This document shows positions 32,083 through 51,641 of a DNA stretch of 64,000 nt, one piece after another. The DNA lies in assembly GCA_910579135.1 (NCBI GenBank), contig CAJTTM010000010.1, positions 716 through 64,715 of the forward strand. Reading direction: 5' to 3'. Position numbers and translations under genes: made by a program. Each line of letters begins with the position of its first letter. Position 1 is the stretch's first letter. The notes beneath the pieces are model-generated. The model did not search any database and was not told the origin of the DNA. It saw only the letters and a list, made by a program, of their open reading frames with translations. Source of the DNA: an uncultured Erysipelotrichales bacterium. Lineage in GTDB: Bacteria > Bacillota_I > Bacilli_A > Erysipelotrichales > Coprobacillaceae.

Positions 32083-35000
32083 TTATTTATAATCAAATTT
32101 CTTGATTGTTATATAAGCTCCTATAGCACATAATACTAATATAGTATATGGCATAATGATAAATGGATCATTTGTCTTGGCACCATCTGCCTTTTTATTG
32201 TTATCTTTTTGATCAACAACTTTTTCATTATCCACTTTTACCTTATCTCCTAATACATCTTTATCAATTTTATCGTTATCTCCAGGTTTTACTGAATCTT
32301 TTATAGCTGATTTTAATAATTCATCTATAACTTTTTGTAAATCTTTTGCATATTGATCAACTTCGCTTTGTTTAGTGAAATCCTTATTAAAATCTATACT
32401 ATTAATAACATCATTTAAATTTTTAACCTTACCTGCATCATATATTGATAAATCACTTGGAACTTTCTTTAATAATTCATTAACCTTTGTATAATTAGCT
32501 AATTTATATTTAAGCTCTTGAATTGCTTTAGAAATAGCCTTTGCATAACCATCTACTTTTTCCTGTTCATCAATCTCTTTATTATATACAACAGCTTGAA
32601 TTGCTTTGTTAAGATTTTGAACTGATTTTTCATCATAGATAGATAAATCATTTGGAACTTTTTCTAACACTTCTCTTATTCTTGTATAATCAGCCCCACC
32701 ATAAACAAGAATTTCATAAATAACAGGATCAACTGCCCTATCAAAAGTCAATTTCACTGCAAGAATAGATGATTGAATATCAAATAACTTCCATGCCCTA
32801 TCTAATGTACCAATATCTTTCCAATTTCCATTTAAATCTTGAACTCCCACCTTTGCATTAGTTATAGATTTTTGATCTTGTAAGATACCAATTTTTAATA
32901 CATCTTTACAAGTTGTCATTGGATAAATCAATTCTTGACCATCTTTTATTTCTAGAATATTTGAATGTGTTGTGATATTTTGATCATCAATAAAATGACT
33001 ATTGTTAATATTGATAGTGCTATTTTTATCAATATATTTTAAATCACTTGCATCAACGGTCTTATTAAATTCAATTTCATAAACCTGTAGCCAATTGCTA
33101 TTCTTTACAGTTGCGACAAATCTTATATATCTTGCAACAGTACCATTCAATGAAGATGTTGCTAAATATTTATCACCTTCAACAACATAATCAGAAACTG
33201 ACATTTTTTCACCAACATCAGACCAAGTTTTTCCATCTTGTGAAATTTGAACTTTCATTTCTTTAAATCCATCAACTTCTCCAACTTTTTTAGGATTAAC
33301 TGCAAACCATATTGAATAGTCATGTACAGAAATAGTTGAACCTAAATCGACTTGTATATAATTTCCTACCTTTGTTGCAGCTCCTGAATAGAATTTTGTA
33401 TCCATATTCCCATCCATAGCTTTATCAATTGCAAATTCAGATTTATATTCTTTCATATCTGTACTTAAAACAGAAGTATTGGCAGAAGTATCTAAAGTTT
33501 GATTATATTTGATTTCATAAACCTTTACAGGATTTTCACTTGATTCACCTGTTACAAAACGAATATATCTTACTAAGTTTCCATCTAATCCAAATGTAGC
33601 GATACTATGATTTCCACTAGTTGTATATTTATCACTTGATAAATAATCACTTGTATCTGTCCATGTTTTTCCATCTAATGATGTTTGAAGTTTCAAGTTC
33701 TTGAAAGCTTCATTTTTATCCAAATAAATACTTGCATCATATAATGGAACTAATGTACCAAAGTCTACACTTATATAATCACCATTTTGTGATACTCTAT
33801 TTGTAGTTAATGATGTATTCATATCATTATCCATGATTTTATCTGTTTTTGTATCAACAGGTATGTTTGTATCTACTTGAAGATGATTACCATAATCTAA
33901 ATAAGTTGCATCATAATCAATTTCATAAATCTTTGTCCATGTATCAGTTGTTCCTGAGGCAACAAAACGGAAATATCTTGCTGTTGCACCCTTTGCATCA
34001 AATACAATTTTCTTCATTGTATCATCTACATCAATATAGTCACTAACACTTTGAGCTTTTCCAACTTTTGTCCAAATCACACCATCTTTAGAAATTTCTA
34101 ATTCTGTAGAAACAAAACCATCAACTTTACCTTTACTGATACCATTGTATAATTCAACTTTATTTAAAGTTGCAAGATTTCCTAAATCAACAGTTATATA
34201 ATTATTATCTTTTGCATAACTATTTGACCAGAAACATGTTGTCATATCACCATCAACGGCGTTATTCAAAACATTTGTCTTATATGTTGATAAATCTGAT
34301 GTCACATTGACAAATAATGGTTGATATCCTTCAGTTATAGATAACTGTTTCATATCCAATTGTGCATTATCTTTTGTACTTACAATTCGTACATATGCGC
34401 CAGTCACAACTTCTTGATTTGTTATATGATTATCATCAACTGATCCAATATCATTCCATGACAAACCATTTAATGAATATTGTAATTTAAATGCATCATT
34501 TTGAGAAATATTGGCATCAATCTTATAAAGATTCATAGCTTTTGGTAAAGCAATAGTAATATAATCATCTTTATTCATTGTTGTTTTAATATTAGAAATT
34601 GAATATGTTGATCCATCTTTCTTTACTTTTTGAATATCTAGATTATCTACATTTGTTATCATTCTTTCATGAATTGTTGGATAATCAATATTTAAATTTA
34701 ATATTTCCCTTATACTATTTATACTCTTTTCTAATAAAGGAGTAATACGATAAGAACCAACAACAATATAAGATTGTCCTTTAATTGTATCAATAATATG
34801 AGAACCACTCTTAGATAATGTATTTTCTAATTCAGATATCTTATCAATTGTTTTTCCTATATCACCTTGTAATGCATATTCATAGCCTTCCATTGCAGCA
34901 ATTCCTGCTTTAGCCATATCTTCATAAGCATCTATATGTTTTTCAACTTCAGATAACAAATTCTGATTTTTAATTTTTCTTAATGCTTGAACATCATTCA

Positions 35001-38000
35001 ACATTTGTTTGAATTTTGCTTTCATATTAGCAATTTCAGTTTTAAAATTATCTCCATATTTTAAGGCATTTTCAAATCTATCAAGATCTTCTTTTAAATA
35101 TTGAGATTCTTCTAATTTAAATCCTGATTTTCTTTCTGGTAAATCAATATAACTAATATTATCTGCAAAACGTTCAAATTCTTCATTGGCTTCTGGAACT
35201 AACTCTTTAATTGAACGTTTCCAACTTGAAACACTATCAAACGCAGAAGTATTCCATGCATAGTCAGCACCACTAAAAACAGTCACTTTTGATGCATCTG
35301 CTTCTGACATAGGATTCAAGAAGAAACTATTAATATTATCAACATCATTATCTAAAATATCTAATGATCCCATCAATAATTTTCCATAACAATAATCTGT
35401 AACAGGATAATTCCACCAAACACCTAAATCTCTATCTACACCTGTTTTCTTTTTTGGTGTTTCAAAATAATCTTTAGTAATCGCAGACATTGTATGTTGC
35501 CCTGTCCACAATACAACTGTGTCAGGATGAATTGTTTTCATAAATGGAGTAAAATATTTTGCCCAATCTCCACCCCAGCTATTATTGTATCGTGATGTTA
35601 CAGTAATAAATGGTTTTACATCTCCATATTTTTCATTTAAATATTTATAAACATCATTAATAAGTTTAGCATGCTTTTCTCCATCAGCAATACTTAAATC
35701 TAAATCATCATAGAAAATACCAAACTGACGAACACCTAAGCTATAAACTTGTTCAAATTTCGCAATTAAAGTTTCATAATCTCCACTACCATTTGTAAAA
35801 TTATAATCTGCACCTGGATGAATTGTCCAACAGAAATCCATATTGTTTTCATGAGCAATTTTAACTAAATCAGAAATATGTTTAGCTTCTTGCGTTGGAT
35901 AGAGTTTTCTCCATTCATCTCTATGATAAATATCATCTTTTGGAGCATAAATATATGTTGTCATCTTATATTTTGATGTATCTTCAAATAAACTTGCTCT
36001 TTCTTCAAATGTCCAAGGGAATCCATAGAATCCTTCAACATATCCTCTAAACTCAACATCAGGATAATCTGAAATAGTAACTTCAGCTAAATGATTATCA
36101 GCTGTCTTTTGTTCAAAGATTTGTAATAATGACATAACTCCATAATATACACCATCTTCATCTGAACCAATGATTGTGATTTGACCACTCTTATGTTCAT
36201 CATTACTTAGATTCATGACATATCCTTGTTTCTTCTCTAAAGCCTTTTGACTATCTTTTACTGAATCACAAATAACACATTCTTTATCACAATCGTTTGC
36301 TAAAATAATTACTGGATTAGTTCCAACTTCATTAACAATCTGATATGTATATCCATTCTTCTCTAATAATTGTTGTACTTTTAGTAAAGTTGCTTGATCT
36401 TGTTCACCATGAACTAGAATATCAACTGTTTTTCCGTTAAGTAGCATACCATTATTAGAATCATAAGTAATATCTTGAACTGTTGGATAAATAGAAACTG
36501 TTGTCTTTGCAGTAATAATATCATTATCAATTGTTAATAATGCATTTCTTAATTCAATAATTGATAAACGAATATCATTATTAAAGCATTCTTTATCTGC
36601 TATCAATTTTTCTGCATTTGAAATCATCTTAGCATATTTTTGATAGTTTTGTCTTAACATTGTTCCTTCAACTGTACCAACTTCAATTTTATCAAGTTTT
36701 GCTTGAACTTCTTTTATTGCTTTTTCTAACTCTACATTTCGTTTTTCATATGCTTCAATTTCATAAATTGAATATCCATAATTTCCTGAAGGTTCTAAAA
36801 GTTCTAATTTAATATATCTTACAGATGTATCTATATCAGTAAATACTCTTTCTCCTTTATTTCCATCAGTAACCTCTTGAATCAAAGTATAATTTTGTCC
36901 ATCTTTTGAACCTAATACATTATATTTTTTAGCATATGAAGATTCAAATGTGACTATTACTCTATCAAGAGAATATTCTTTTTCTAAATCAACAACAACT
37001 GATTCAACTGGATTTTCTTTATATGCAGCACCATTGTATGCATTACCCCAACGTGAATCTAAATCACCATCTGTGATATGAGAATAATCAAATTTATTGT
37101 TTGTATTCTTATATGTTGAAGTTGTTGTTACTTTTTTATCAAGTGCTATATTTGTATAAATTCTTGAATCTGGATTTTTTTCATATACTTCTAATTCATA
37201 TAGTGCATATCCATATTTATACTTATCACTTTTTGGTGCATGGAAAGCTAATCGTACATACTGTGTTTTAACGTTTCCTAATCCATCATATTCTATTCTT
37301 TGTTTATCCTCATATGGTACATTATCTTTAATATCTTTAATATCAAAGAAAGTTTTTCCATCCAATGATCCTTGAATTGTAAAATCTTTAGCATAAGCTT
37401 TTTCCCATGAAATAGCTATCATATCTATTGGATACACTGCCCCTAAATTAACAGTTAAATTTTCTTCTAGATTACCATTACCATTGTTATAACCATTTGT
37501 ATCATTATATTTCACTTGCCATTTATTAGTATCTATCTTTCCATCAACAACATAATTTGCTCCATAACCAGTTTTTGCATAGGTTGAAGAAGCGCTTGTT
37601 TCTTTATTAAGGGCAAGATTTGGATATCTTGCTTCTAAATTATCAATTGCTTTTTGAATATCACTAACTGCTTGATCAATATCATCTTGTGTAGCAGTAG
37701 ATGATAATGACTTCGCTTTTTGTACCTTTTCTTTAACGATATTTAATGTAGCATCAGAATATTTTTCTTCATTGATTTCATCTACTTTTTTATAGATTTC
37801 ATCTAATGCTACTGTATCCTTTGCCTCATATACTTCTAATTCATAAATTGAATAACCATATTGGCTAGCAGGAGTATGCATAGCTAATCTTACATATCTT
37901 GTTTCTACTGCATCCAATTCATGAACTTCAGTTTCACCAGTACCTTTTGTAATATCTTTGATATCAAAGAAAGTTTCTCCATCAAGCGATCCTTGAAGAG

Positions 38001-39546
38001 TATAACTTGTCGCATGTGCTGCTTCCCATGAAATAGACACAGTTCCAATATTGTAAGTATCTCCTAAATCAACCGTTATTGTTTCTTCAGTGTCTCCTTG
38101 ACCTCTATTAAATGGTGCAACATTATATGCATTCCCCCAACGAGTACCCATGTCACCATCAACCGCATGAGCCACTGCAAATGTACTTTTAGCATAAGTA
38201 GATGAAGCAACTACATTCTTCATATATGCTAAATTACTTGTATTATATTCTAAATTCTTAGGAACATAAATTTGGAAAATCTCATTAATTTCATCATCTG
38301 AGACACTTGCTAGTGAAGATGTTGGATTCTTTGAAATATTAAAAGCTCTTTCTGTGAAATTTCCCCACCATGAAACATCAACGACAACTTGATTTGATGA
38401 AACATTCCCTGGTCTTACAGCTGCAGTATTCACTCCTCCATTGATCCATCCTTCTGGTCTATATTGCCATCCATCAGCAATCACAATGACAGAGCCAACT
38501 GGTAAAGTTGCTTTTGTAAATTTTTGTGTGACTACAAAATTTGGAGCAATAGCACTTGTTGTATCCATAGTATAATGTTTATCATTTTTTGCTGATGAAT
38601 TATAGAATCCACCATTTGTTAATGTAAGTGAAGCTCTCTCTAATTCAGAAAGATCTATCTGATATTGAGATTGAGTCACTTCATATGGTTTTGAAAAAGC
38701 ATTTTTTACTGATTCAATAGCCATTGCTTTTTCTTTATCACTCACACCACTTGGTTTATATGATAATTTATCAATATCTAAACCAGTAAAAGCATGTGCA
38801 AAAGTGATTCCTGCAATATATCTTCCTACATCATAAGTTAAATGATAACCATCTCTTGTAAGAGTATCTCCTATAAAAGATGATCTTGCATTTTGAACAG
38901 ATGTTCCTGTAGGAATTACAAAATCAATATCTTTATTTGTATCGATTTTGTTTTGAACAGCCGATACAATCGCATTATACATTGTTTTTTGATCTTTATT
39001 ATAATTTTTAAAATCTGCATGACTAGAATTACCTTGATATGCCCATGTCATATTCCAACCAAATTGAGCATCTGGTTGTAATTCTCTAACAATATCCATT
39101 AGTTCTTGTAAATCATCATAAGTATCAGGTAAACCACTACTTCCACTTGCTTGTTGAAAAGTAATATAATCCCAATCCTCACTTAATACAGCTGTTTTTA
39201 TGCTTGTACTTTTTGTTGTTACCCAACTACCACTATCATTAGTATAGTATGTATAAGCATTAGAATCGCTTTTTGCATTTTCAAGATGAGTTGCTAAAGC
39301 ACATCCACCAATGTATAAATTCCCTAATTTTACATTTTTTACACCTAAATCTTTAGCGATTTCATATAGATATTGTTGACTATCTACTGAAAAACTATTT
39401 CCTATACTTAATACTTTAAGGGTTTGATCTTCATTCCACTTTGAGTCAACTTCATATCCATAAGAGTTTTTAATATGCATTGGTAAAATCCCTATACATA
39501 ATACTAAAACCATTATTATTTTTAGAAATCTTTTACATTTTCTCAT
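32083..39546 (-). CDS. 2487-aa surface protein: SGNH/DUF4886-like esterase domain + several F5/8 type C (CBM32) modules + GH84 beta-N-acetylglucosaminidase + more CBM32 + FIVAR + TM anchor
   Basis: Signal peptide; GNSFSVDS block; repeated ...YGYSIYELEVYE ends of discoidin modules. GH84 core RGYVEGFYGFPWTFEE ... TYIYAPKDD ... FGIFYDDL. Two FIVAR-like repeats. Start set at ATG 39546 after AGGGAGGA; the track used an upstream TTG. Confidence 0.85.
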   Translation of the reverse strand: MRKCKRFLKIIMVLVLCIGILPMHIKNSYGYEVDSKWNEDQTLKVLSIGNSFSVDSQQYLYEIAKDLGVKNVKLGNLYIGGCALATHLENAKSDSNAYTYYTNDSGSWVTTKSTSIKTAVLSEDWDYITFQQASGSSGLPDTYDDLQELMDIVRELQPDAQFGWNMTWAYQGNSSHADFKNYNKDQKTMYNAIVSAVQNKIDTNKDIDFVIPTGTSVQNARSSFIGDTLTRDGYHLTYDVGRYIAGITFAHAFTGLDIDKLSYKPSGVSDKEKAMAIESVKNAFSKPYEVTQSQYQIDLSELERASLTLTNGGFYNSSAKNDKHYTMDTTSAIAPNFVVTQKFTKATLPVGSVIVIADGWQYRPEGWINGGVNTAAVRPGNVSSNQVVVDVSWWGNFTERAFNISKNPTSSLASVSDDEINEIFQIYVPKNLEYNTSNLAYMKNVVASSTYAKSTFAVAHAVDGDMGTRWGNAYNVAPFNRGQGDTEETITVDLGDTYNIGTVSISWEAAHATSYTLQGSLDGETFFDIKDITKGTGETEVHELDAVETRYVRLAMHTPASQYGYSIYELEVYEAKDTVALDEIYKKVDEINEEKYSDATLNIVKEKVQKAKSLSSTATQDDIDQAVSDIQKAIDNLEARYPNLALNKETSASSTYAKTGYGANYVVDGKIDTNKWQVKYNDTNGYNNGNGNLEENLTVNLGAVYPIDMIAISWEKAYAKDFTIQGSLDGKTFFDIKDIKDNVPYEDKQRIEYDGLGNVKTQYVRLAFHAPKSDKYKYGYALYELEVYEKNPDSRIYTNIALDKKVTTTSTYKNTNNKFDYSHITDGDLDSRWGNAYNGAAYKENPVESVVVDLEKEYSLDRVIVTFESSYAKKYNVLGSKDGQNYTLIQEVTDGNKGERVFTDIDTSVRYIKLELLEPSGNYGYSIYEIEAYEKRNVELEKAIKEVQAKLDKIEVGTVEGTMLRQNYQKYAKMISNAEKLIADKECFNNDIRLSIIELRNALLTIDNDIITAKTTVSIYPTVQDITYDSNNGMLLNGKTVDILVHGEQDQATLLKVQQLLEKNGYTYQIVNEVGTNPVIILANDCDKECVICDSVKDSQKALEKKQGYVMNLSNDEHKSGQITIIGSDEDGVYYGVMSLLQIFEQKTADNHLAEVTISDYPDVEFRGYVEGFYGFPWTFEERASLFEDTSKYKMTTYIYAPKDDIYHRDEWRKLYPTQEAKHISDLVKIAHENNMDFCWTIHPGADYNFTNGSGDYETLIAKFEQVYSLGVRQFGIFYDDLDLSIADGEKHAKLINDVYKYLNEKYGDVKPFITVTSRYNNSWGGDWAKYFTPFMKTIHPDTVVLWTGQHTMSAITKDYFETPKKKTGVDRDLGVWWNYPVTDYCYGKLLMGSLDILDNDVDNINSFFLNPMSEADASKVTVFSGADYAWNTSAFDSVSSWKRSIKELVPEANEEFERFADNISYIDLPERKSGFKLEESQYLKEDLDRFENALKYGDNFKTEIANMKAKFKQMLNDVQALRKIKNQNLLSEVEKHIDAYEDMAKAGIAAMEGYEYALQGDIGKTIDKISELENTLSKSGSHIIDTIKGQSYIVVGSYRITPLLEKSINSIREILNLNIDYPTIHERMITNVDNLDIQKVKKDGSTYSISNIKTTMNKDDYITIALPKAMNLYKIDANISQNDAFKLQYSLNGLSWNDIGSVDDNHITNQEVVTGAYVRIVSTKDNAQLDMKQLSITEGYQPLFVNVTSDLSTYKTNVLNNAVDGDMTTCFWSNSYAKDNNYITVDLGNLATLNKVELYNGISKGKVDGFVSTELEISKDGVIWTKVGKAQSVSDYIDVDDTMKKIVFDAKGATARYFRFVASGTTDTWTKIYEIDYDATYLDYGNHLQVDTNIPVDTKTDKIMDNDMNTSLTTNRVSQNGDYISVDFGTLVPLYDASIYLDKNEAFKNLKLQTSLDGKTWTDTSDYLSSDKYTTSGNHSIATFGLDGNLVRYIRFVTGESSENPVKVYEIKYNQTLDTSANTSVLSTDMKEYKSEFAIDKAMDGNMDTKFYSGAATKVGNYIQVDLGSTISVHDYSIWFAVNPKKVGEVDGFKEMKVQISQDGKTWSDVGEKMSVSDYVVEGDKYLATSSLNGTVARYIRFVATVKNSNWLQVYEIEFNKTVDASDLKYIDKNSTININNSHFIDDQNITTHSNILEIKDGQELIYPMTTCKDVLKIGILQDQKSITNAKVGVQDLNGNWKDIGTLDRAWKLFDIQSSILAVKLTFDRAVDPVIYEILVYGGADYTRIREVLEKVPNDLSIYDEKSVQNLNKAIQAVVYNKEIDEQEKVDGYAKAISKAIQELKYKLANYTKVNELLKKVPSDLSIYDAGKVKNLNDVINSIDFNKDFTKQSEVDQYAKDLQKVIDELLKSAIKDSVKPGDNDKIDKDVLGDKVKVDNEKVVDQKDNNKKADGAKTNDPFIIMPYTILVLCAIGAYITIKKFDYK
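35704..35709 (-). other. GH84 catalytic Asp-Asp codons
   Basis: Reverse complement reads GGT ATT TTC TAT GAT GAT TTA (GIFYDDL), in frame (codons 1280-1281). Confidence 0.75.
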
Positions 39547-39693
39547 GCCTTTTCCTCCCTTCAATAAGAAAACTCTGTATTTTTTTATATCCCTCCTTAT
39601 CTTATAAACCCAAAATATATATCATAATATGAATCATTTAATGAATTGTTATAATATCTCACACCCTTTCTTTTTTTTATTTCTGTATTTTAG

Positions 39694-39761
39694 ACAAAAA
39701 AAGGCCAGAAAAATACATCAATGTATTTCTCTGGTCTTGCCTAATTGAATAGTCACAATCC
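39694..39761 (-). promoter_or_regulatory. RAT (ribonucleic antiterminator) overlapping an intrinsic terminator, copy 1
   Basis: Minus strand GGATTGTGACTATTCAATTAGGCAAGACC (39761..39733), compared with the LicT/SacY RAT GGATTGTTACTG..CAGGCAAAACC. Its 3' GACC starts the hairpin GACCAGAGAAATACAT-TG-ATGTATTTTTCTGGCC, followed by T7. Confidence 0.8.
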
Positions 39762-39773
39762 TTGTCTACTAAA

Positions 39774-39802
39774 ATTATACACTTTTTAAAATCTTTTGTC
39801 AA
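39774..39802 (-). promoter_or_regulatory. consensus sigma-A promoter in front of RAT1
   Basis: TTGACA (39802..39797), 17-nt spacer, TATAAT (39779..39774). The RAT begins 12 nt downstream. Confidence 0.75.
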
Positions 39803-39824
39803 TTTGGATATGATATTTTGCTTA

Positions 39825-40658
39825 TTATTTCACATTTATGTTCCTCTTAATATGTATACATAAATATGTCTGTTCATCTGGAGAAAGTTCATAATTATAA
39901 TTTTTCTCAATTAAAGAAACTATTCTATTAATACACATAGACAATCTTGCATCATCTTTTAATAACATTCTTATATCATATGTTGTATCTATAAAGGATA
40001 TCTCTTCATTTCTAAAAATTCTTTCTCCTAAATATTTTAAATGCATAGAAATGCGTGCATATTCTAATGAACTTGTTTCTAATTCTATTTTCATTGTTTT
40101 TTGAATTAAATCAATAACTTCCTTAGTAAAAGTTAATATCTTAGTTGCATTATTCTCTTTATTTGATAAAGAGAAGTTAACAAGATGTAAAGCTATATAA
40201 CCAGCTTCATGTTCATCTAAAAGAATTCTCGTTTTTTTAAATATATATTGAATTGCCCATAATCCTACTTCAAATTCTTTTTTATATAAGACTTTTGTCT
40301 CATCAAGTATAATATTAGGTAAATAAACATGTTCTTTATATCGTTTCATAGCAAACGATATATGATCACTAATTGCAATAAATATCTCACTACTAAAATC
40401 TGTATCTAATTCTTTACTTGCCTTTTTTATAATTTGTTCAGTTATTTCAAAATAAACAACAGGTATATTACGTAAAGATTTTTCTAGTCTTTTTTTATGT
40501 TCATCTTGAAACACATATCTTTTTTCTATTTTACTTTCATCAACCAAATCTCCAGCTTTTTTTCTAAAACCAATGCCTGATCCAGTTAAAATAATATCTT
40601 GTTTATCTTCAGATAATGCAACTACACTATTATTATTAAATATTTTTAATATAATCAT
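39825..40658 (-). CDS. BglG/LicT/SacY-family PRD transcription antiterminator
   Basis: 277 aa. CAT domain MIILKIFNNNSVVAL...GSGIGFRKK followed by two PRDs. Confidence 0.9.
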   Translation of the reverse strand: MIILKIFNNNSVVALSEDKQDIILTGSGIGFRKKAGDLVDESKIEKRYVFQDEHKKRLEKSLRNIPVVYFEITEQIIKKASKELDTDFSSEIFIAISDHISFAMKRYKEHVYLPNIILDETKVLYKKEFEVGLWAIQYIFKKTRILLDEHEAGYIALHLVNFSLSNKENNATKILTFTKEVIDLIQKTMKIELETSSLEYARISMHLKYLGERIFRNEEISFIDTTYDIRMLLKDDARLSMCINRIVSLIEKNYNYELSPDEQTYLCIHIKRNINVK

Positions 40659-40668
40659 AACATTTCAC

Positions 40669-42129
40669 CTACCTAATAATATCATTCATCGCTTCAACTA
40701 TAAAATCAACTTGAGTTCCTATAATAGCTTGCAATCCATTTTTTCCCATCTTTACAATACCACTTACTCCAGTATTAATAATAGCTTGTTCATCAACTAA
40801 TTCTATATCTCTAAGCCTTACTCTTAATCTTGTAATACAACTATCTACTGCTATTATATTACTTTTACCACCTAATGCTTCCACATATAGAATAGCTAAT
40901 TCATCGTAATCTTGACTATCTAATGTTATGCCATTTTCTATATTTGTATCTTCAAATACAAGTTCATCTACTTCTCTTCCTGGTGTCATAAGATTATATC
41001 GAAGAATCATAAACTTAAATAAATAATAATATACAAAAGCAGATATAATTCCTAATGGAATCAACATATATGCATTATGTGAAAAAGGAGCCTTCATACT
41101 TAGGACATAATCAATAAAACCTGCAGAAAAACTAAATCCTGCCAACCATTTCATTGAGGCAGCTATAAAAACAAAGATCCCTGTTAAAATAGCATGCATC
41201 AAATATAATGATGGAGCTACAAACATAAATGCAAATTCTATTGGTTCTGTTACTCCTGTTAAAAAAGAAGCAATTGCACTAGATAATAATATAGCCCCTA
41301 CTTTTTTCTTGTTCTCTGGTCGAGCATATTGATACATAGCAAGTGCTGCAGCCGGTAATCCAAACATCATAACTGGAAAAAATCCAGCTTGATACATTCC
41401 AGTTTGTCCTAATATTCCTCCAGAAATTGATCCCCAGAATTTACCAATATCATTAATATTTGCAACATCAAACCAAAATACAGAATTTAAGGCGTGATGC
41501 AATCCTGTTGGTATTAGTAATCTATTAAAGAAGGCGTAAATACCAGCACCTGTAGCTCCTAATTTCGCAATCATTTCACTAAAAACAACAAATAGATTAT
41601 AAAGTATAGGCCACACTAAAATTAATATAATGGATAATAATAACATTGCGAATGTACACACTATAGGAGAAAAACGTCTCCCATTAAACAATGAAAATGC
41701 ATTAGGAAGTTGAATATTATGATAACGGTCATATATTTTAGCGCTTATTAACCCAACAAGTATTCCTATAAAAGCATTTGGTGTGCTTTCAAAACATTGT
41801 GGAACTTTTGAGATTGATACATTCATCAATAAAGATATTGTATCCTGTGATAATAATCTATTTACTAACAAATAGGATACGATTGTACTCATCATAATCA
41901 TAGAATCTTTTTGTTCTGCCATTCCAATCGCAATGCCCACTGCAAACAATATTGGTAAATTATCTATAATTGCTCCTCCTGATTCAATTAAAAAGGCAGC
42001 AATTATATTATTGGCTCCCCATCCAATTGGATCAATCCAATATCCTACCCCTTTTAATATTGCTGCAATAGGCATAATAGAGACAGGTAACATTAATGAT
42101 TTTCCTAATCGCTGTAAATAATTCAACAT
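40669..42129 (-). CDS. PTS glucose/GlcNAc-family EIICB component
   Basis: EIIC (LQRLGKSLMLPVSIMPIAAIL) plus C-terminal EIIB with the phospho-Cys motif SCITRLRV. Start probably ATG 42129 (9 nt after AAGGGAG); the track gives 42138. Confidence 0.85.
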   Translation of the reverse strand: MLNYLQRLGKSLMLPVSIMPIAAILKGVGYWIDPIGWGANNIIAAFLIESGGAIIDNLPILFAVGIAIGMAEQKDSMIMMSTIVSYLLVNRLLSQDTISLLMNVSISKVPQCFESTPNAFIGILVGLISAKIYDRYHNIQLPNAFSLFNGRRFSPIVCTFAMLLLSIILILVWPILYNLFVVFSEMIAKLGATGAGIYAFFNRLLIPTGLHHALNSVFWFDVANINDIGKFWGSISGGILGQTGMYQAGFFPVMMFGLPAAALAMYQYARPENKKKVGAILLSSAIASFLTGVTEPIEFAFMFVAPSLYLMHAILTGIFVFIAASMKWLAGFSFSAGFIDYVLSMKAPFSHNAYMLIPLGIISAFVYYYLFKFMILRYNLMTPGREVDELVFEDTNIENGITLDSQDYDELAILYVEALGGKSNIIAVDSCITRLRVRLRDIELVDEQAIINTGVSGIVKMGKNGLQAIIGTQVDFIVEAMNDIIR

Positions 42130-42171
42130 ATAACTCATCTCCCTTTTTATCTACAAATAAATATTTGTTTC

Positions 42172-42200
42172 TTGAAAATATAATGCTCACTAAGTATAAT
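42172..42200 (+). promoter_or_regulatory. near-consensus sigma-A promoter of the EIIA gene
   Basis: TTGAAA (42172..42177), 17-nt spacer, TATAAT (42195..42200). The palindrome ACAAATA-AA-TATTTGT (42153..42168) lies just upstream. Confidence 0.65.
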
Positions 42201-42269
42201 AAAATTATGAAACTAGTTTTCTTGAAAAAACATATCATTTATCTTTAATTTTAGAAAGGACAATATTAT

Positions 42270-42752
42270 ATGAAATCCTTACAACAATTGTTTAAAAATA
42301 AAATTAATACTATCTATGCTATTGCAGATGGAAACCTTATTCGTATAGAAAATATCCCTGATACAGCATTTTCTCATCGACTTATTGGTGATGGATTGGC
42401 ATTACAAATTCATTCATCGAACATTTATGCTCCTTGTGATGGTACAATATCTATGATAGCTTCAACAAAGCATGCTTTCATTATTACATTGTCTAATGGT
42501 ACAGAAATTCTTATTCATATAGGACTTTATCATGATAAACCTGTTTCCGAATACTTTCATTACCATGTACAAGTTGGACAACCAGTAACAACAAATAATC
42601 TTATTCTTACATTAGATGATAATTTTTTAAAATCAAATGACTATAAAATTATTGTTCCTATAGTTATTCTTAATTATCAAGAACATCCTATCAAATCATT
42701 AACAACTGTATCATATATTGAACATGGTAAAAAAATAATGACTTGTAAATAA
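42270..42752 (+). CDS. PTS glucose-family EIIA component
   Basis: 160 aa. DTAFSHRLIGDGLAL ... KHAFII ... ILIHIG, with both His of the Crr-type active site. Confidence 0.8.
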   Translation: MKSLQQLFKNKINTIYAIADGNLIRIENIPDTAFSHRLIGDGLALQIHSSNIYAPCDGTISMIASTKHAFIITLSNGTEILIHIGLYHDKPVSEYFHYHVQVGQPVTTNNLILTLDDNFLKSNDYKIIVPIVILNYQEHPIKSLTTVSYIEHGKKIMTCK

Positions 42753-42783
42753 TCATTATTTGAGCTTTTTTTATCATTAGGTG

Positions 42784-42854
42784 AAAAAACAAGCCTCAAA
42801 ATTATTAAAAAAATAAATATTTCGAGGTCTTTCCTAATTCAATAGTCACGATCC
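42784..42854 (-). promoter_or_regulatory. RAT overlapping an intrinsic terminator, copy 2
   Basis: Minus strand GGATCGTGACTATTGAATTAGGAAAGACC (42854..42826), 26/29 identical to RAT1. Hairpin AAGACCTCGAAATATT-N9-AATAATTTTGAGGCTT followed by GTTTTTT. Confidence 0.75.
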
Positions 42855-42862
42855 TTACACAT

Positions 42863-42891
42863 ATAATATATGATTTATCACAACTTTTCAA
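42863..42891 (-). promoter_or_regulatory. sigma-A promoter in front of RAT2
   Basis: TTGAAA (42891..42886), 17-nt spacer, TATTAT (42868..42863). The RAT starts 8 nt downstream. Confidence 0.65.
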
Positions 42892-42978
42892 TTCATTTTT
42901 ACTGATTTTTCGATAGTTCTTAAAAATTCTCATTCATGCTATAAATACACTTATATTTCATTTTTAGCATTTTTTTTA

Positions 42979-43012
42979 CAAAAAAACGAAGTAAAATCAC
43001 TTTTACTTCGTT
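42979..43012 (-). terminator. rho-independent terminator of rpoBC
   Basis: Minus strand AACGAAGTAAAA-GTGA-TTTTACTTCGTT followed by T7. Confidence 0.85.
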
Positions 43013-43021
43013 TTATTTTAT

Positions 43022-46000
43022 TTAATTAGTAAATGCTTCTTCTTCAACATTTTTAGCTTGTTCTAAAGTTTCATTGTTATCAATTTCATCTAATTGCTCA
43101 ACAATTGTTTCTAATTCTTCTAATTGTCTAGCTTCTTCATTTTCAGCAGTAATTGTTTCAGGAGATTTCAATGCACCTCTTAAACCAGTACCTGCTGGTA
43201 ATAATTGACCAATAATTACATTTTCTTTTAATCCACGTAAATCATCAACTTTTCCTTTAATAGCAGCATCAGTTAAGATTCTTGTTGTTTCTTGGAATGA
43301 TGCAGCAGATAACCATGAATCAGTTTCAAGTGAAGCTTTAGTTATACCTAGTAAGATAGGTCTAGCTACAGCTGGGTGTTTTCCATTTCTTAAAACGTCT
43401 CTATTGATTTCTGTAAATTTCGCAACATTAATACGAGTTCCTGGTAAAGCCCCCGTATCTCCACCTTCAACAATACGCATCTTTCTTAACATTTGTCGAA
43501 TGATAATTTCGATATGTTTATCAGAAATCTCAATACCTTGTAAACGATATACTTTTTGAACTTCTTTTAAGATATAGTTTTCAACTGCTTCAACATCTGC
43601 AACTTCTAATAATTCTTTTGGATCAATTGAACCTTCAGTAATCTTACCTCCAATTTCAACACTATCCCCAACACTAACTCTTAATTTTGCTCCATAAGGG
43701 GCTAAATAACTCTTAGTTTCTAAAACATTTGTAACAACGATTTCTGCTCTACCATTGTTATCAATAATGTTTGAAACTTCACCATCAATTTCAGAAATAA
43801 TTGATTTAGCTTTTGGATTTCTAGCTTCAAATAACTCTTGAATACGAGGAAGACCTTGAGTGATATCTGCACCACCTGCAACTCCACCCATATGGAAGGT
43901 ACGCATTGTAAGCTGTGTACCTGGCTCACCGATAGATTGAGCAGCCATAATACCAATTGTTTCTCCTAATTCAACTTCATTACCAGTTGCTAGATTACGT
44001 CCATAACAACGTTTACATACACCATTTTGAGCACGACATCCAAATATTGAACGAATTTCAACAGATGTAATTCCTGCATCACTTATTTTTTTAGCTGTAA
44101 TCTCATTCATCAATTCATTTGCATGAACAATGATTTCTCCACTTTGAGGATCTATGATATCTTTTAATGAGTAACGTCCAACTAATCTATCATATAATGG
44201 AACGATAACTGAGTTATCAGCAGTATTATATAATTCTGTTACAATAAATCCTCTATCAGTACCACAATCATCCTCTGTAATAATAACTTCTTGAGCAACG
44301 TCTACTAAACGTCTTGTTAAATAACCTGAATCAGCTGTCTTTAAGGCAGTATCTGTAGACCCTTTTCTGGCACCATGTGTAGAAATGAAGAATTCAGATG
44401 CTGTTAAACCTTCTCTAAATGAAGATTTGATAGGCAACTCAATAGTTTCACCTTTAGGGTTAGACATCAATCCACGCATACCTACTAACTGAGTAAAGTT
44501 TGAAATATTACCACGCGCTCCTGAATCAGACATGATGAAGATTGGATTATTTCTATCAGATTCGAATTCTTCTTTTACAACATCTTGAACTTCATCCTTA
44601 ACACCTTCCCATAATTTAATAACAGATGTCTTTCTTTCCTCTTCAGTTAATTTACCTTTACGATATAATTTAGTAATAACTTCTAGTTTATCATCAGCTT
44701 TATCAAATAATTTATATTTACTATGAGGAACCTGAATATCATATACAGATACAGTAATTCCTGCAATTGTAGAATAATAGAAACCTTGATCTTTTAATTT
44801 ATCAAGCATTGCACTAGTATCCTTCATTACAGAAGTCTTGAATACTTCATTAATGATATTACCTAATGCTTTTTTATTTAAAGGCATAATAATTGCTTGA
44901 TTCTTAATATGCTCTTTAATATCAGTTCCCATCGGTACAAAATATTTATCAGGAGTTCTCTCTAAGTTTTCTTTACTTGGATCGTTAATGAATGGGAAAG
45001 TCCCTTCAAAGATTTGATTAAATATAATCTTACCAACAGTAGTAATTAAATAACTGTTATTTTGTTCTTCAGTAAATGTAGAGTTATTTAATGATTTACC
45101 TCTAATTGCAACTCTTGTATGCAAATGTACAGTTTTTGCATCATATGCCATTAAAACTTCATTAACATCTGCAAATACAGTTCCTTCTCCAACTTTTCCA
45201 GCAACTTCTAATGTTAAATAGTAGTTACCAAGCACCATATCCTGTGAAGGAGTAACGATTGGTTTACCATCTTTAGGTCCTAAAATGTTATTAGATCCTA
45301 ACATTAATTGTCTTGCTTCTTGAATAGCTTCTTCTCCTAAAGGAACATGGACAGCCATTTGGTCACCATCAAAATCAGCATTAAATGCAGGTGTAACCAA
45401 CGGATGCAAACGAATTGCACGTCCTTCTACAAGTTTAGGCTCAAATGCTTGAATACCTAATCTATGAAGTGTAGGAGCACGGTTTAATAATACTGGATGC
45501 TGTTTAATGACTTCTTCAACAATTGGCCAAATACGGTCATCCATCTTTTCAATTAATCTTTCAGCAGCCTTAATATTTGTTGCGATTTCTTCTCTTACTA
45601 ATCCACTAATAACAAATGGTTTAAATAAATTTAATGCCATTTCACGTGGAATACCACATTGATACATTTTTAAAGTAGGTCCAACTGCAATAACTGAACG
45701 TCCTGAATAATCAACACGTTTACCCAAAAGGTTTTGTCTAAAACGACCTTGTTTACCTTTTAAAGTATGGCTTAATGATTTTAATGGTCTTCCTCCTGCA
45801 CCTGTAATAGGTTTAGAACGGCGTCCATTATCAATTAAAGCATCTACTGCTTCTTGTAACATACGTTTTTCATTTTGTACAATAATAGAAGGAGTTCCTA
45901 ATTCTAATAATTTCTTTAAACGATTATTACGTGTAATAACACGTCTATATAAATCATTCAAATCACTTGTCGCAAAACGTCCACCATCTAATTGTAACAT

Positions 46001-46720
46001 CGGTCTTAAATCAGGTGGTATAACTGGAAGAGCATCTAAGATCATCCATTCAGGTTGATTATTTGATGATCTAAACGCGTCAATTGCTTCTAATCTCTTC
46101 AATAATTTAGAACGTTTTTGTCCTTGAGCTTCTTTTAAAGCTTTGCTAACATTTTCAAACTCTTCATCTAAATCAACTTTTTGAAGCAATACTTTAATTG
46201 CTTCAGCACCAATTTTAGCCTCAAATTGATTACCAAATTTCTCATAACAACTACGATAATCTCTTTCAGATAAAACTTGTTTATATTCTAAAGGTGTACT
46301 TCCTTTATCAGTAACAACATATGAAACGAAATAAATAATTTCTTCAAGTTGTTTTGCAGTCATATCAAGAATAAGCCCCATTCTTGAAGGAATACCTTTT
46401 AAATACCAAATATGTGCAATAGGAGTTGCTAATTCAATATGCCCCATACGTTCACGACGTACAGATGATTTTGTAACTTCTACACCACAACGATCACAGA
46501 CAACACCTTTATATCTAACTTTCTTATACTTACCACAACTACATTCCCAATCCTTAGAAGGTCCAAAAATCTTTTCACAATATAAACCATCTTTTTCTGG
46601 CTTTTGTGAACGATAGTTAATTGTTTCTGGTCTTTTGACCTCACCATAAGACCACTCACGAATCTTTTCTGGTGAAGCCAAACCAATTTGAATTGCGGAA
46701 AAATTATTTACATCTGCCAT
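43022..46720 (-). CDS. rpoC: DNA-directed RNA polymerase subunit beta'
   Basis: 1232 aa. Zn-finger [20 protein letters not shown] and catalytic NADFDGDQM. Confidence 0.98.
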
Positions 46721-46734
46721 TTTGGTACTTCCTC

Positions 46735-49700
46735 CTATTCTTCTTCATTTTCTTCATCAAAACTAAACATACTGTCAATAACACTATCTAAAGTACTATC
46801 AGTATCTTCATCAAAGCTTTCGCTTTCTTCTAAACTTTCTTCAGGTAAGTCTTCCTCATTTTCTTCTACTTCTTTAGTTGGAGCAGTATCAATAGAAATA
46901 GGGAAACGACGTTCTTCATCTTCGATTTTTCTCTCTCCGATTTCATTACCTTCATCATCAATAAGTCTAATATCTAAAGCTAATGCTTGAAGTTCTTTCT
47001 TTAAAACTCTGAATGCTTCAGGAATTCCTGGTTCAGGTAATTTTTGTCCCTTAACAATAGCCTCATAAGTTTTAACACGTCCAACAACATCATCAGACTT
47101 AACTGTTAACATTTCACGTAATGTATAAGCAGCACCATAAGCTTCTAATGCCCAAACTTCCATTTCTCCAAATCTCTGACCACCATTTTGAGCTTTACCT
47201 CCTAATGGTTGTTGAGTAGTTAATGAATAAGGACCAACTGATCTTGCATGTAACTTATCATCAACCATGTGAGCAAGTTTAATCATATACATAACACCAA
47301 CAGAAATCTTAGAATCGAAATATTCACCAGTACGACCATCAATAACACTTTGTTTTCCATCAATAGGCATACCTGCTTCTTTCATGACTTCTTCTAAGTC
47401 TGAACTATTTAATCCATCGAAAGCTGGAGTTGCAAAATACATTCCTAATTCTCTTGCAGCATATCCTAAATGAAGTTCAAGAACCTGTCCGATATTCATA
47501 CGAGAAGGAACTCCTAATGGATTTAACATGATATCTAAAATAGTACCATCTTCAAGATGTGGCATATCTTCAATTGGTAAAATTTTTGAAATGACACCCT
47601 TATTACCATGACGACCTGCCATCTTGTCACCTTCACTAATCTTACGTTTTTGAACAATATAAACCTTTACAACTTTATTTACACCTGGTTGTAATTCATC
47701 ACCATTTTTTCTTGTAAAGACTTTAATATCATGAACAATACCTGCACCACCATGAGGAACACGTAAAGAATTGTCTTTAACCTCACGTGATTTTTCACCA
47801 AAGATTGCAAGCAATAATTTTTCCTCAGCAGATAATTCAGCTTGACCTTTTGGAGTGACCTTACCAACTAAAATATCTCCTTCTTTAACTTCAGCACCAA
47901 TCATAATGATACCTTCGCTATTTAAGTTCTTTCTTGCTTCCTCACCAACATTAGGAATATCTCTTGTAATTTCTTCAGGACCTAATTTTGTATCACGACA
48001 TTCAATACTATATTCTTCAATATGAATAGATGTATAAACATCATCTTTAACTAATCTTTCAGACATGATAACAGCATCTTCATAGTTATAACCATTCCAT
48101 GTCATGAAACCAACTAAAACATTTTGTCCTAGAGCTAATTCACCTTGTTCCATAGAAGGACCATCAGCTAGTACTTCACCTTTTAATACTTTATCTCCTA
48201 CTTTTACAATAGGCTTATGATTAATACAGCTTCCAGCATTAGAAATAATAAATTTTAATAAACGATAGTTCTTAGGACCATTTTCCCCTTCAACAATAAT
48301 CTTCTTTGCATCAACATAAGTAACAACACCATCTTCTTTTGCAACAACCGCTGCTCCAGAATCTCTTGCAGCTTGGAATTCCATACCTGTTCCAACAAAT
48401 GGAGCATGTGGATTCAATAATGGTACTGCTTGACGTTGCATGTTAGCACCCATTAAGGCACGAGTCGCATCATCGTTTTCAAGGAAAGGAATACATGAAG
48501 TTGCAACTGAAACGATCTGTTTTGGAGAAACGTCAATAAAATCAACATCTTCTGGCTTGGCCATAATGTTTTCTCCTAAATGACGAGCAATAACTTGTTC
48601 ATCTAACATTCTTCCATTTTCATCAACTTGTATCTTAGCTTGTGCAATAATATAATTCTTTTCTTCATCAGCAGTTAAATAACGCACATCATTTTCATCT
48701 ATAACACTATTATTAACCTTACGATAAGGTGTTTCAATAAATCCATATTTATTAATTTTAGCATAAGATGCTAATGTAGAAATCAATCCAATGTTTGGAC
48801 CTTCAGGAGTTTCGATCGGACAAATACGCCCATAGTGAGATGCATGAACGTCACGTACTTCATAACCTGCACGATCTCTTGATAAACCACCTGGCCCAAG
48901 CGCAGATAAACGACGCTTATTTGTCAACTCTGCAAGAGGATTAATTTGATCCATAAACTGTGATAATTGAGATGAAGAGAAGAACTCTTTAATAGCAGCA
49001 GTTAATGGTCTAATATTTGTAAGAGATTGTGGTGTTACACTATCAACTTCTGATAATGACATTCTTTCTTTTACAACTCTTTCCATTCTTGATAAACCAA
49101 TTCTAAATTGATTTTGAATTAATTCACCAACAGAACGAACACGTCTATTACCTAAATGATCAATATCATCTAATAAACCAATACGACTCATTAAACTAAC
49201 TCTATCATCAGCAGCTAAATCTAAAGAATCAAAAATATCAACTAAATTTAACATATATGAATAAGCAGCTAACATATCAGAAATAGTAATAAATTTACTA
49301 TCTAATGATAAATCAGTACCTATTACTCTCATTTTCTTTGCACGACTATCATCAACATAAACTTCAATGACTTGAATTCTACTATGTGAATTCAAAAACT
49401 CATTTGTTTTTACATCACGCATATGTGCTCCTGCTTGGAAAACAGGTCTTAAAATTTCAATTTTATCTTTTGTAAGTAATGTTCCTTCTTTCATAACAAC
49501 ATTACCATCAATATCTATAACATCTTGAGCTAAAATTCTATTTGTAATACGATCTAATAAATCAATCTTTTTACCTAATTTAAAACGTCCTGCTTTTGCT
49601 AAATCATATCTTTTTGCATCAAAAAACTTTGCAAACAATAAAGAATTAGCCCCTTCTAATGTTGCAGGTTCTCCTGGTCTTAACTTATTATATATCTCTA

Positions 49701-50424
49701 TTAATGCTTCATCAGTATCATGAGTAGGATCCTTAGCTAGTGTATTTGTTAAGAACTCATGTTCACCTAAAACGTCAATAATATCTTCATCACTACTTAA
49801 ACCAAGAGCACGTAAAAGAATTGTCCCTGGTATCTTACGTGTTCTATCAATACGAACATTTAATACATCCTTCGCATCATTTTCAAATTCTAGCCATGTA
49901 CCTCTAGATGGAATAATACTTCCTGTAAAAACAGTCTTACCACTTTTATCCATAGCATCTGCAAAATATGCTCCTGGAGAACGAACTAATTGTGATACAA
50001 TAACACGTTCAGCTCCATTAATAATAAATGTACCTGAGTCTGTCATTAATGGGAAATCACCCATAAATACTTCATTTTCTTTAATTTCTCCTGTACCATT
50101 ATTGATTAGACGTAAAGTAGCACGAATAGGTGCAGAATAATTTGCATCTCTATCTTTACTTTCGTCAGCCGAATATTTAGGTTTATCAAAACGACAATCT
50201 ACAAACTCTAATGTTAATGTTTCATTAAAGTTACTAATCGGATAAACATCATTAAATACTTCTTTAATACCCTCTTCTTTAAACCATTTGTAAGAATTTG
50301 TTTGAATTTCTACTAAATTTGGTAATTCCAATGCACCACTAACTCTAGAATAATTTTTACGAGTTATACGGCTTTTTGACTTTGTTGCACTTTTTTCCAA
50401 GTTCGATTCACTCCTTTTGTTCAT
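46735..50424 (-). CDS. rpoB: DNA-directed RNA polymerase subunit beta
   Basis: Rif-region and catalytic blocks present ([24 protein letters not shown]). Start set at ATG 50424 (MNKRSESN), 6 nt after AGAGGT. Confidence 0.97.
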
Positions 50425-50545
50425 CTCTATACCTCTGTTGAAAAAAGCTAAAAAACACTGCTTTTTATACATGGTTAGGCATTTTATTATACTAGCATAT
50501 TAGAATACATTAGTCAATAAAATTTTTAAATTCACATGTATATTT

Positions 50546-51148
50546 TTACAGTGCTTTTTTTAATGATTTCAATATATAATATCCTTTATCTTTTTTAACA
50601 ATCTCACAATTCCCAAATACTTTTTCCATTTCTTTTTTAGCAGAAGGAGCCCCTTGTTTTTTTTGAATGACAATCATTAGAAATCCATTATTATTTAAAT
50701 ATTGATATGCTTTATCCAAAATTTCAAAAACAACTTTTTTCCCCGCCCTTATTGGCGGATTAGAGATAATCACATCAAATAACCCATCAACATTTTCATA
50801 GGCAAAACTTTTATAAGCCTTGATATTTGTAAGTTTATTATATTTTATAGACTCATTTGTAAGGTGTATTGCTCTCTCATTAACATCTATCATTTCAACA
50901 TCAAGCCAAGGATATTCTTTTTTTAAAGAAATGCCTAAAGTTCCATATCCGCAACCTACATCAAGTAATCTTTTATGTCTTTCTTCTATTTCAATAGCAT
51001 CCAAAAGAACTCTAGACCCATAATCAACTTTGTCTTTTGAAAACACACCATAATCACTAATAAAAGTGATATTATGTTGACGATAACGAAAATGAATCTT
51101 CATTTCTTCTGATTTTAAATCTATATTGTTTGTATAATAATGAGCCAT
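50546..51148 (-). CDS. class I SAM-dependent methyltransferase, RsmC/YbxB-like
   Basis: LDVGCGYGTLG SAM motif and NPPIRAGK. Same position as B. subtilis ybxB between rplL and rpoB. Start set at ATG 51148. Confidence 0.8.
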   Translation of the reverse strand: MAHYYTNNIDLKSEEMKIHFRYRQHNITFISDYGVFSKDKVDYGSRVLLDAIEIEERHKRLLDVGCGYGTLGISLKKEYPWLDVEMIDVNERAIHLTNESIKYNKLTNIKAYKSFAYENVDGLFDVIISNPPIRAGKKVVFEILDKAYQYLNNNGFLMIVIQKKQGAPSAKKEMEKVFGNCEIVKKDKGYYILKSLKKAL

Positions 51149-51232
51149 TTTTTTCTTTCCTTTCACCTTCACTATTATGTCATAACCCTTTTTGAAAGTA
51201 AATAAAAACTTTTTTATATTATATAGACAAAA

Positions 51233-51260
51233 GAAAAAAAGCCTTTAATTAAGGCTTTTA
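51233..51260 (-). terminator. rho-independent terminator after rplL
   Basis: Minus strand AAGCCTT-AATT-AAAGGCTT followed by T7. Confidence 0.75.
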
Positions 51261-51269
51261 GATAATCAA

Positions 51270-51641
51270 TTATTTAACTTCTACAGTTGCTCCAGCAGCT
51301 TCAAGTTTTTCTTTGATTTGAGCTCCTTCTTCAGCTGGAATGTCTTTCTTGATTTCTGAAGGTACTTTATCAACCAAACCTTTAGCATCAACTAATCCTA
51401 ATCCAGTGATTTCTCTTACAGCTTTAATAACTGCAACTTTAGTTGCCCCAACATCTGTTAATGTAACAGTAACGTTAGCAGGTGCAGCGTCAGCAGCTTC
51501 AGCTGGTCCAGCAGCTACAGCTACAGGTGCAGCAGCAGTTACATCAAATTTTTCTTCAATTGCTTTTACTAATTCATTTAATTCTAAAATTGTAGCTTCT
51601 TCTAAATAAGCTAAGATTTCATCTTGTGTTAATTTTGCCAT
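51270..51641 (-). CDS. rplL: 50S ribosomal protein L7/L12
   Basis: 123 aa. Ala-rich hinge and C-terminal [14 protein letters not shown]. Confidence 0.97.

Follow-up and report, generated by a model that had tools for sequence, protein, structure and literature searches.

Antitermination of the BglG/SacY family controls the NagY regulon of Enterococcus faecalis (nagY-nagE, hylA) in response to N-acetylglucosamine (GlcNAc) (PMC9981650, PMC12502629). A related locus is encoded on the DNA analyzed here, a stretch of 64,000 nucleotides (the window) from an uncultured Erysipelotrichales bacterium of the Coprobacillaceae (GenBank assembly GCA_910579135.1, contig CAJTTM010000010.1, positions 716 to 64,715). 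As in E. faecalis, the gene for a PRD antiterminator (licT) adjoins that for a NagE-type GlcNAc permease of the phosphotransferase system (PTS), EIICB; gates composed of a ribonucleic antiterminator (RAT) and a terminator stand before the transporter operon and before secreted glycan-degrading enzymes; and regulator and permease are here proposed to be autoregulated. The E. faecalis operon, however, reads promoter-RAT-terminator-nagY-nagE, with a fused EIICBA and nothing between, whereas in the window a separate EIIA gene of opposite orientation lies between the gate (gate 2) and EIICB-licT, with EIICB first and the antiterminator second. The parts, a NagY-like GlcNAc regulon and gates before secreted GH84 enzymes, are ordinary; the wiring is unusual, in that the first gene downstream of a RAT-gated promoter is, as read from the sequence, the oppositely oriented EIIA of the same PTS. 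The reading put forward for this arrangement, to which an even chance of being correct is assigned, is that the gate-2 promoter drives EIICB-licT through a long leader antisense to EIIA, in the manner of an excludon.

Excludons of Listeria, as summarized in a review, carry a long 5′ untranslated region over a divergent neighbor (Sesto et al. 2013, reviewed in PMC7154746). In the window, too, a promoter lies beyond a divergent and functionally linked neighbor, and its transcript would be both antisense RNA of that neighbor and mRNA of the next gene; unlike in known excludons, a protein-dependent RAT attenuator would release the predicted long transcript. Riboswitch-gated antisense RNAs are represented by the S-box element behind ubiG-mccBA of Clostridium acetobutylicum (PMC2566862) and the B12 riboswitch with AspocR of Listeria (PMC7154746). 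As in these systems, gate 2 is a conditional terminator with its own promoter, placed 3′ of a gene and converging on it, and read-through would yield antisense RNA; their sensor, however, is a metabolite-binding RNA and the antisense RNA their end product, whereas here a PTS-controlled RNA-binding protein would act and the transcript would continue into two coding genes. The noncontiguous operon of Staphylococcus aureus, menE-menC-MW1733-ytkD-MW1731 (PMC7154746), has its embedded gene flanked on either side by coding genes, whereas here nothing but a regulatory leader stands upstream: upstream of EIIA on the minus strand there is just the ~70-nt gate-2 leader, and rpoC beyond it has its own terminator. 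A full-text literature search returned no paper joining ribonucleic antiterminator with antisense, PRD, and phosphotransferase. To our knowledge, PRD antiterminators, textbook regulators, are always drawn as a gate followed by its sense gene, excludons and gated antisense RNAs have until now been linked with alternative sigma factors or riboswitches, and no protein-dependent RAT attenuator releasing an excludon transcript has been described.

Gate 2 and the proposed route to EIICB

The elements between the gate-2 promoter and the end of licT are listed below by window coordinates.

42891..42863, minus strand: gate-2 promoter, TTGAAA-17-TATTAT, convergent with EIIA, 10 of 12 consensus matches
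42854..42826, minus strand: RAT 2, GGATCGTGACTATTGAATTAGGAAAGACC, 29 nt, of the glycosidase-gate RAT class
42831..42784, minus strand: gate-2 intrinsic terminator followed by GUUUUUU (U6 tract), the only sizeable hairpin 3′ of EIIA
42270..42752, plus strand: EIIA of the glucose/GlcNAc family, 160 amino acids (PF00358 at 2.7e-36)
42172..42200, plus strand: EIIA promoter, TTGAAA-17-TATAAT, 11 of 12 matches, with a 69-nt leader that lacks a RAT
42143..42139, minus strand: ribosome-binding site of EIICB, GGGAG
42129..40669, minus strand: EIICB, NagE-type GlcNAc-specific PTS permease (TIGR01998, 578 bits; cut-off 553)
39825..40658, minus strand: BglG/LicT/NagY-type PRD antiterminator (licT), with PF03123 (CAT) and two stretches of PF00874 (two PRDs)

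Each sequence feature named in a first-pass annotation of this DNA, which had placed an opposite EIIA between gate 2 and EIICB, was recovered in place or close by. EIIA is oriented against all neighboring genes. Together, EIIA on the plus strand and EIICB-licT on the minus strand constitute one PTS, and they diverge with ATG codons 140 nt apart, which is the relation between neighbors that an excludon entails. The EIICB frame is open from 42138, and its likely start is the ATG at 42129, since this codon lies 9 nt after GGGAG, orthologue alignments begin there, and gene callers give a product of 486 amino acids; the start of about 42129 in the first-pass annotation agrees with all of these. The antiterminator is a family member rather than LicT itself, because its score against the LicT model (246 bits) is under the equivalog cut-off of 300; with its CAT domain and two PRDs, it supplies the cognate antiterminator that an attenuator is expected to have encoded nearby. 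Gate 2, the EIIA-EIICB spacer, and the gene order are all identical in eight conspecific contigs from other samples, and the layout is therefore not an assembly artefact. Single-nucleotide polymorphisms among these contigs number 4–8 per 2.9 kb, none of them non-coding, and are too few to test selection.

Transcription from gate 2 is predicted to start near 42856, and RAT 2 begins ~8 nt past the −10 element. A degenerate RAT pattern matched two sites in the whole window and none in shuffled sequences, and RAT 2 is identical at 26 of 29 positions to RAT 1, the element of gate 1 before the GH84 gene. The 5′ arm of the gate-2 terminator overlaps the last 6 nt of RAT 2, the mutual exclusion that characterizes an attenuator, and the 77-nt leader folds at −14.5 kcal/mol with the terminator hairpin as its main stem. 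Hairpins of the same kind, built from different sequences, occupy gate 2 in G012 (a Candidatus Stoquefichus metagenome-assembled genome, MAG) and G081 (a mouse-gut MAG and three metagenome contigs). An Rfam scan of 30000..52000 (E ≤ 1) matched no family, RATs being absent from that library; by its sequence, the sensor of gate 2 is a protein-dependent RAT and so differs from the ligand-binding RNA of riboswitch-gated antisense systems. RAT attenuators have their sense target directly downstream, whereas the first open reading frame past gate 2 is EIIA on the opposite strand (42752..42270), and EIICB, the first sense gene, begins ~655 nt past the terminator. The EIIA stop codon is 32 nt away from the end of gate 2, and a convergent conditional terminator with its own promoter is the configuration of a gated antisense RNA. 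As the first-pass annotation pointed out, gate-2 transcripts can reach EIICB only by crossing EIIA in antisense.

The convergent promoter among relatives

Orthologous EIICB-antiterminator loci were compared across the family's species genomes and across metagenome and Logan assemblies. In the ancestral layout, found at 11 genome loci of five genera (g3, g4, g10, g20, and g46) and at the metagenome loci L142 and L144, a promoter, RAT, and terminator lie in EIIA's own leader on the EIIA strand, and the EIIA-EIICB spacer measures 235–510 nt; in genus g4 a perfect TTGACA-18-TATAAT precedes EIICB(-licT). In the derived layout, found in the window, G012, G081, L139, L145, and L146, EIIA has its own promoter without a RAT, the spacer is ~100–140 nt (140 in the window), and a promoter, with or without RAT and terminator, stands 3′ of EIIA and points into it. 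The six derived lineages form one clade in a tree of EIICB and the antiterminator (support 97/98), nested among ancestral-type loci and sister to L142/L144, then to G021. Monophyly and nesting indicate that the layout arose once, and it has persisted to ~68% EIICB identity; on this tree the layout is old and inherited. The deep sister branch L145 has an intact promoter-RAT-terminator at the EIIA 3′ end, which makes the gated form ancestral to the clade. As a separate observation, RATs in EIIA leaders were recorded at L003, L004, L017–L023, L034, L035, L140, L142, and L144; in most of the family it is the stand-alone EIIA, not the EIICB-antiterminator operon, that is under RAT control, and an EIIA made sugar-inducible alone by antitermination is itself unusual.

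The state of gate 2 varies within the derived clade as follows.

G012: promoter TTGAAA-17-TATTAT; canonical RAT; terminator present
L145: promoter TTGACT-17-TATCAT; canonical RAT; terminator present
Window: promoter TTGAAA-17-TATTAT; complete gate, RAT with three substitutions; terminator present
G081: promoter TTGAAA-17-TATTAT; 3′ half of the RAT destroyed (TTAGGCAAG to TAAAAAAAG) in three independent assemblies; hairpin kept
L139: promoter TTGAAA-17-TATTAT, −10 element ~30 nt from the EIIA stop; RAT absent; terminator absent
L146: a weaker TATAAT element only, in the equivalent place; RAT absent; terminator absent

The window, G012, G081, and L139 agree without exception in both promoter hexamers and in the adjoining AATTGAAA and CxTATATTAT blocks. 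As a neutral baseline over these four lineages, the invariant fraction is 21% at 4-fold sites and 48% at all synonymous third positions, with a synonymous divergence of 0.8–0.95 between the window and G012; for all 12 hexamer positions to remain unchanged, the probability is 6e-9 to 1e-4. Among the lineages compared, the promoter is the most conserved part of gate 2 and outlasts both RAT and terminator. Relatives with the same arrangement and no gate 2, which the first-pass annotation would have held against its proposal, exist in part: the RAT is broken in G081, and RAT and terminator are both missing in L139, but both lineages keep the convergent promoter, which argues that read-through matters and that gating is dispensable. 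The persistence of the promoter with or without a gate, the lack of a conserved EIICB promoter, and the lack of an intervening terminator (see below) suggest that the convergent promoter is the promoter of the EIICB-licT operon. Without its gate, such a promoter would be sensible as an operon promoter and would make little sense as an orphan or a pure antisense regulator. L139 also carries (4135..5419) a perfect promoter-RAT-terminator ~210 nt beyond EIIA, pointing away from it; its RAT is identical to RAT 1, and it precedes a secreted protein of 355+ amino acids that is open at the contig end.

The source of gate 2 was traced by comparison of 19 RATs. Those of glycosidase gates follow GGATTGT(G/T)ACTATT..ATTAGGCAAGACC (short form GGATTGT..GGCAAGACC) and those of EIIA leaders ..RATGT(G/T)ACTATT.AATTAGGCAT.AG (short form RATGT..GGCATNAG), the classes differing by a compensatory swap of U-A to A-U at pair (6,27). 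All three intact gates that face the EIIA 3′ end (window, G012, and L145) are of the glycosidase class. At the same position in G021 and G089, a RAT-gated GH84 operon (with GH16 in G021) runs toward EIIA and ends ~100–130 nt from the EIIA stop, with strong terminators between; in the window, GH84-GH16 now lie downstream of licT, behind gate 1. The body of an upstream GH84/GH16 operon was probably lost or moved, leaving its gate against the EIIA 3′ end, and the middle of the EIIA-EIICB spacer was probably lost as well, taking the EIIA RAT and the EIICB promoter with it. Gate capture with central spacer loss fits the compared loci better than a single inversion; of the routes by one inversion that were drawn up on paper, none turns the ancestral layout into the observed gene order.

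A gate so acquired could be no more than a decaying leftover, the front of a GH84/GH16 operon with no regulatory role, whose hairpin survives as the terminator of EIIA. The glycosidase-class RAT and the GH84 operons that converge on EIIA at this position in G021 and G089 agree with such a history, as does the erosion of the RAT, which is degenerate in G081, deleted in L139, absent in L146, and altered by two pair-breaking changes in the window. An orphan promoter, however, should decay as fast as the RAT, and the gate-2 promoter is the best conserved element, invariant in four lineages at near-saturated synonymous divergence and kept in L139 although the hairpin is gone. Canonical RATs are also retained in G012 and L145, both deep branches of the clade. 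No other strong EIIA terminator is present in the window, G012, or G081, which would give the hairpin a use, but on the EIIA strand it is followed only by UCUUUCC, a poor U tract. Loss of all regulatory function is accordingly regarded as improbable. The comparative series, from the ancestral layout to a gated convergent promoter and on to an ungated one, would represent the stepwise capture of a regulatory module from a neighboring glycosidase operon, in the course of which the sugar-inducible part of the PTS shifts from EIIA to EIICB and the regulator.

Orientation of EIIA and transcription of EIICB-licT

The first-pass annotation had left two explanations for the layout, a built-in antagonism between EIIA and EIICB expression or the scar of a recent inversion. 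In the latter, a recent inversion or an invertible segment would have flipped EIIA out of a canonical promoter-RAT-EIIA-EIICB-licT operon; a textbook operon does result if 42139..42790 is flipped, and an 18-nt inverted repeat, 83% complementary, is found at 42159-42176 and 42805-42822. This repeat, however, is AT-only and centered on the self-complementary AAATATTT, and one of its arms lies in a window-specific insertion. Examination of the EIIA borders for inverted repeats and recombinase sites yielded only low-complexity AT-rich repeats, 79–83% complementary, and the locus is flanked by ordinary genes (rpoC and GH84). Where adjacent, EIIA diverges from EIICB in 16 of 16 lineages, with no co-directional or flipped relative among those examined, and the eight conspecific contigs likewise show a single orientation. 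GC skew on the EIIA sense strand is about −0.27 to +0.04 overall and −0.08 to −0.69 at third positions across both layouts (−0.17 in the window), and that of EIICB and licT is positive overall (+0.10 to +0.35) in both layout types. The skew of EIIA has equilibrated to its present strand, and its placement there is therefore old. GC skew was also considered as a proxy for antisense transcription in the derived layout and was set aside, since the same negative values occur in both layouts and date the orientation only. The inversion is effectively refuted, its probability being close to nil; according to these comparisons, what moved is the RAT gate and not the EIIA gene. As for the antagonism, the inheritance of the layout in a six-lineage clade and the invariance of the convergent promoter are in keeping with a built-in arrangement, while the effect on EIIA itself is something we infer.

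Two further elements bear on how EIICB-licT might be transcribed.

42733..42761, both strands: AU-rich 11-bp hairpin (almost pure A-U) spanning the stop of EIIA; each strand has U runs; no counterpart in G012 and G081
42201..42196, minus strand: TATTAT, the reverse face of the symmetric EIIA −10 element at a 1-nt offset, read directly from the sequence

No near-consensus EIICB promoter was found on the minus strand in 42139..42269, as the first-pass annotation had reported, nor do the derived lineages share a positionally conserved SigA-like EIICB promoter in their short spacer. No terminator-like site is predicted on the minus strand from 42784 to 42129 in the window, nor on the EIICB-sense strand from gate to EIICB in G012 and G081; the hairpin at 42733..42761 could act as a weak bidirectional terminator, possibly leaky in both directions. 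The near-consensus EIIA promoter, also noted earlier, is confirmed and is kept in G012, G081, and L139, with analogues (TTGACT/TTGACA-17-TAGAAT) in L145 and L146. A candidate operator beside its −35 element, the palindrome ACAAATA-AA-TATTTGT (42153..42168), does exist but was rejected as a probable chance occurrence: the window has one such palindrome per 790 nt, 398 of 2000 intergenic shuffles (20%) contain one, and this copy lies in the window-specific insertion and is absent from G012 and G081. Also rejected was a conserved antisense promoter inside EIIA (TTGATA-18-AAYRAT, found at one shared codon position in three species), whose −10 element is poor and whose conservation is explained by coding constraint, TTGATA being the reverse of conserved N-Y-Q codons.

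If EIICB-licT were instead transcribed from an unrecognized promoter in or near the spacer, gate 2 would serve only to act against EIIA, through a conditional antisense RNA or through transcriptional interference. Its convergent geometry is that of the riboswitch-gated antisense systems (PMC2566862, PMC7154746), and two start sites for EIICB may be put forward. The first is the reverse face of the EIIA −10 element (42196..42201), which could provide a basal start near 42189 in the window subclade. Bidirectional promoters arise from −10 symmetry with starts 18 bp apart (Warman et al. 2021, as cited in PMC10268837), and the EIIA −10 TATAATA, which is invariant in the window subclade, similarly reads TATTAT on the other strand at the canonical 1-nt offset described there; the surrounding TTTATTATAC block is invariant in alignment A2. 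Unlike the mapped promoters of that citation, however, the reverse element is a sequence match only, it has no conserved −35 among the relatives compared, and the symmetry is absent in L145 and L146, where the −10 is TAGAAT. The second candidate, TAAACA-18-TATAAT (42294..42265, minus strand), is the sole 10/12 match, overlaps the EIIA start codon, and is not kept in relatives. Some gate-independent expression of EIICB-licT is required in any case, since the antiterminator is needed before induction, and G081 has intact EIICB and licT genes despite a terminator without a RAT. An ungated, constitutive antisense promoter such as that of L139 is not readily understood as an EIIA regulator, however, and with no terminator before EIICB any antisense transcript would enter that gene. 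A role of gate 2 confined to antisense is thus judged unlikely, though deserving of serious consideration.

Several observations weigh against transcription of EIICB-licT from the gate-2 promoter. In RAT 2, pairs (7,26) and (8,25), intact in the other 18 of the 19 RATs, are broken by two substitutions; an alternative register of RAT 2 is predicted to fold at −3.0 kcal/mol, compared with −3.3 for RAT 1. If the antiterminator binds RAT 2 poorly, the fairly good terminator would stop most transcripts. G081 has lost its RAT and still has the terminator hairpin (gate leader −13.5 kcal/mol), so EIICB-licT must there use terminator leak or another promoter, and the promoter-like element of L146 matches the consensus at only 9 of 12 positions. 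Either of the two candidate starts described above could supply EIICB transcription. Promoter-like matches in the AT-rich window are at background frequency (32 found, 30 expected), which makes the failure to find an EIICB promoter weak evidence. There would also be no obvious physiological logic in lowering EIIA just as the sugar arrives.

If the gate-2 promoter is the operon promoter, as proposed, polymerase would start near 42856, and by analogy with the BglG/SacY mechanism the nascent RNA would either have RAT 2 bound by the LicT/NagY-type antiterminator of the locus or form the overlapping terminator. Read-through RNA would extend ~480 nt in antisense over EIIA and past the promoter of that gene, to serve as EIICB-licT mRNA with a ~727-nt leader. 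Where a gate is present, GlcNAc would open it and raise permease and antiterminator, in a positive autoregulation like that of nagY-nagE. This transcription would also counteract EIIA, by polymerase collision, promoter occlusion, or RNase III cleavage of the sense-antisense duplex, as expected of an excludon. A reciprocal effect may be envisaged: EIIA has no strong terminator in the window, so polymerases transcribing it probably continue across the gate-2 promoter, which they could occlude. The antisense EIIA RNA has a C/G ratio of 0.72, compared with 1.5 for antisense rpoC, and having more G than C it should be a poor Rho substrate. Matches to Rho were above the family cut-off in the window's genome (G000), G012, and G081, all derived, and at the level of the ATPase only in the ancestral G021 and G005, a small sample of five genomes.

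The fullest form of this proposal is a PRD-antiterminator-gated excludon in which one GlcNAc signal, passed through the PTS, raises EIICB and LicT and lowers the cognate EIIA, and which arose once by capture of a glycosidase gate and persisted in a Coprobacillaceae-like gut clade; it is offered tentatively, as somewhat more likely wrong than right. If read-through occurs, a protein-dependent, PTS-controlled attenuator would release an RNA that is at once operon mRNA and antisense to a partner in the same phosphorelay. A gated excludon of this kind would reset the phosphorelay acting on the PRD of its own antiterminator, with feedback or bistability as a conceivable outcome.

Neighboring genes and possible mobility of the locus

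The locus lies directly downstream of rpoB-rpoC on the minus strand, with rpoC on one side and GH84 on the other.

43014..42983, minus strand: rpoC terminator
39705..39802, minus strand: gate 1, before the GH84 gene, with promoter TTGACA-17-TATAAT (perfect consensus), RAT 1 (39761..39733), and terminator
32083..39564, minus strand: giant secreted GH84 beta-N-acetylglucosaminidase, 2493 amino acids, the target of gate 1

The genes upstream of the PTS block differ in each derived lineage (rpoC, an rRNA methylase-like gene, integrases, or a large unidentified gene), and the block therefore seems to move as a unit. At L145 (3428..6545) and L142 (5945..7318), both metagenome relatives, its neighbors are phage-type integrases, a CHAP-domain gene, or a serine recombinase. 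In G021, the EIICB orthologue (G021:C30:2216255-2217523; L004 1504..2959) is interrupted by a TAG codon and matched by tblastn in two pieces (residues 4-424 and 423-488), which may reflect either a pseudogene or a misassembly.

Control by the locus extends, in this gut commensal, to secreted GH84 enzymes that free GlcNAc from glycans, and the input logic of the locus would bear on glycan foraging. Elsewhere in the window's genome (contig C14:58942-58963, locus L050), a third RAT, which shares its core with RAT 1, stands before a further secreted GH84-like gene; G012 and G081 each have an equivalent.

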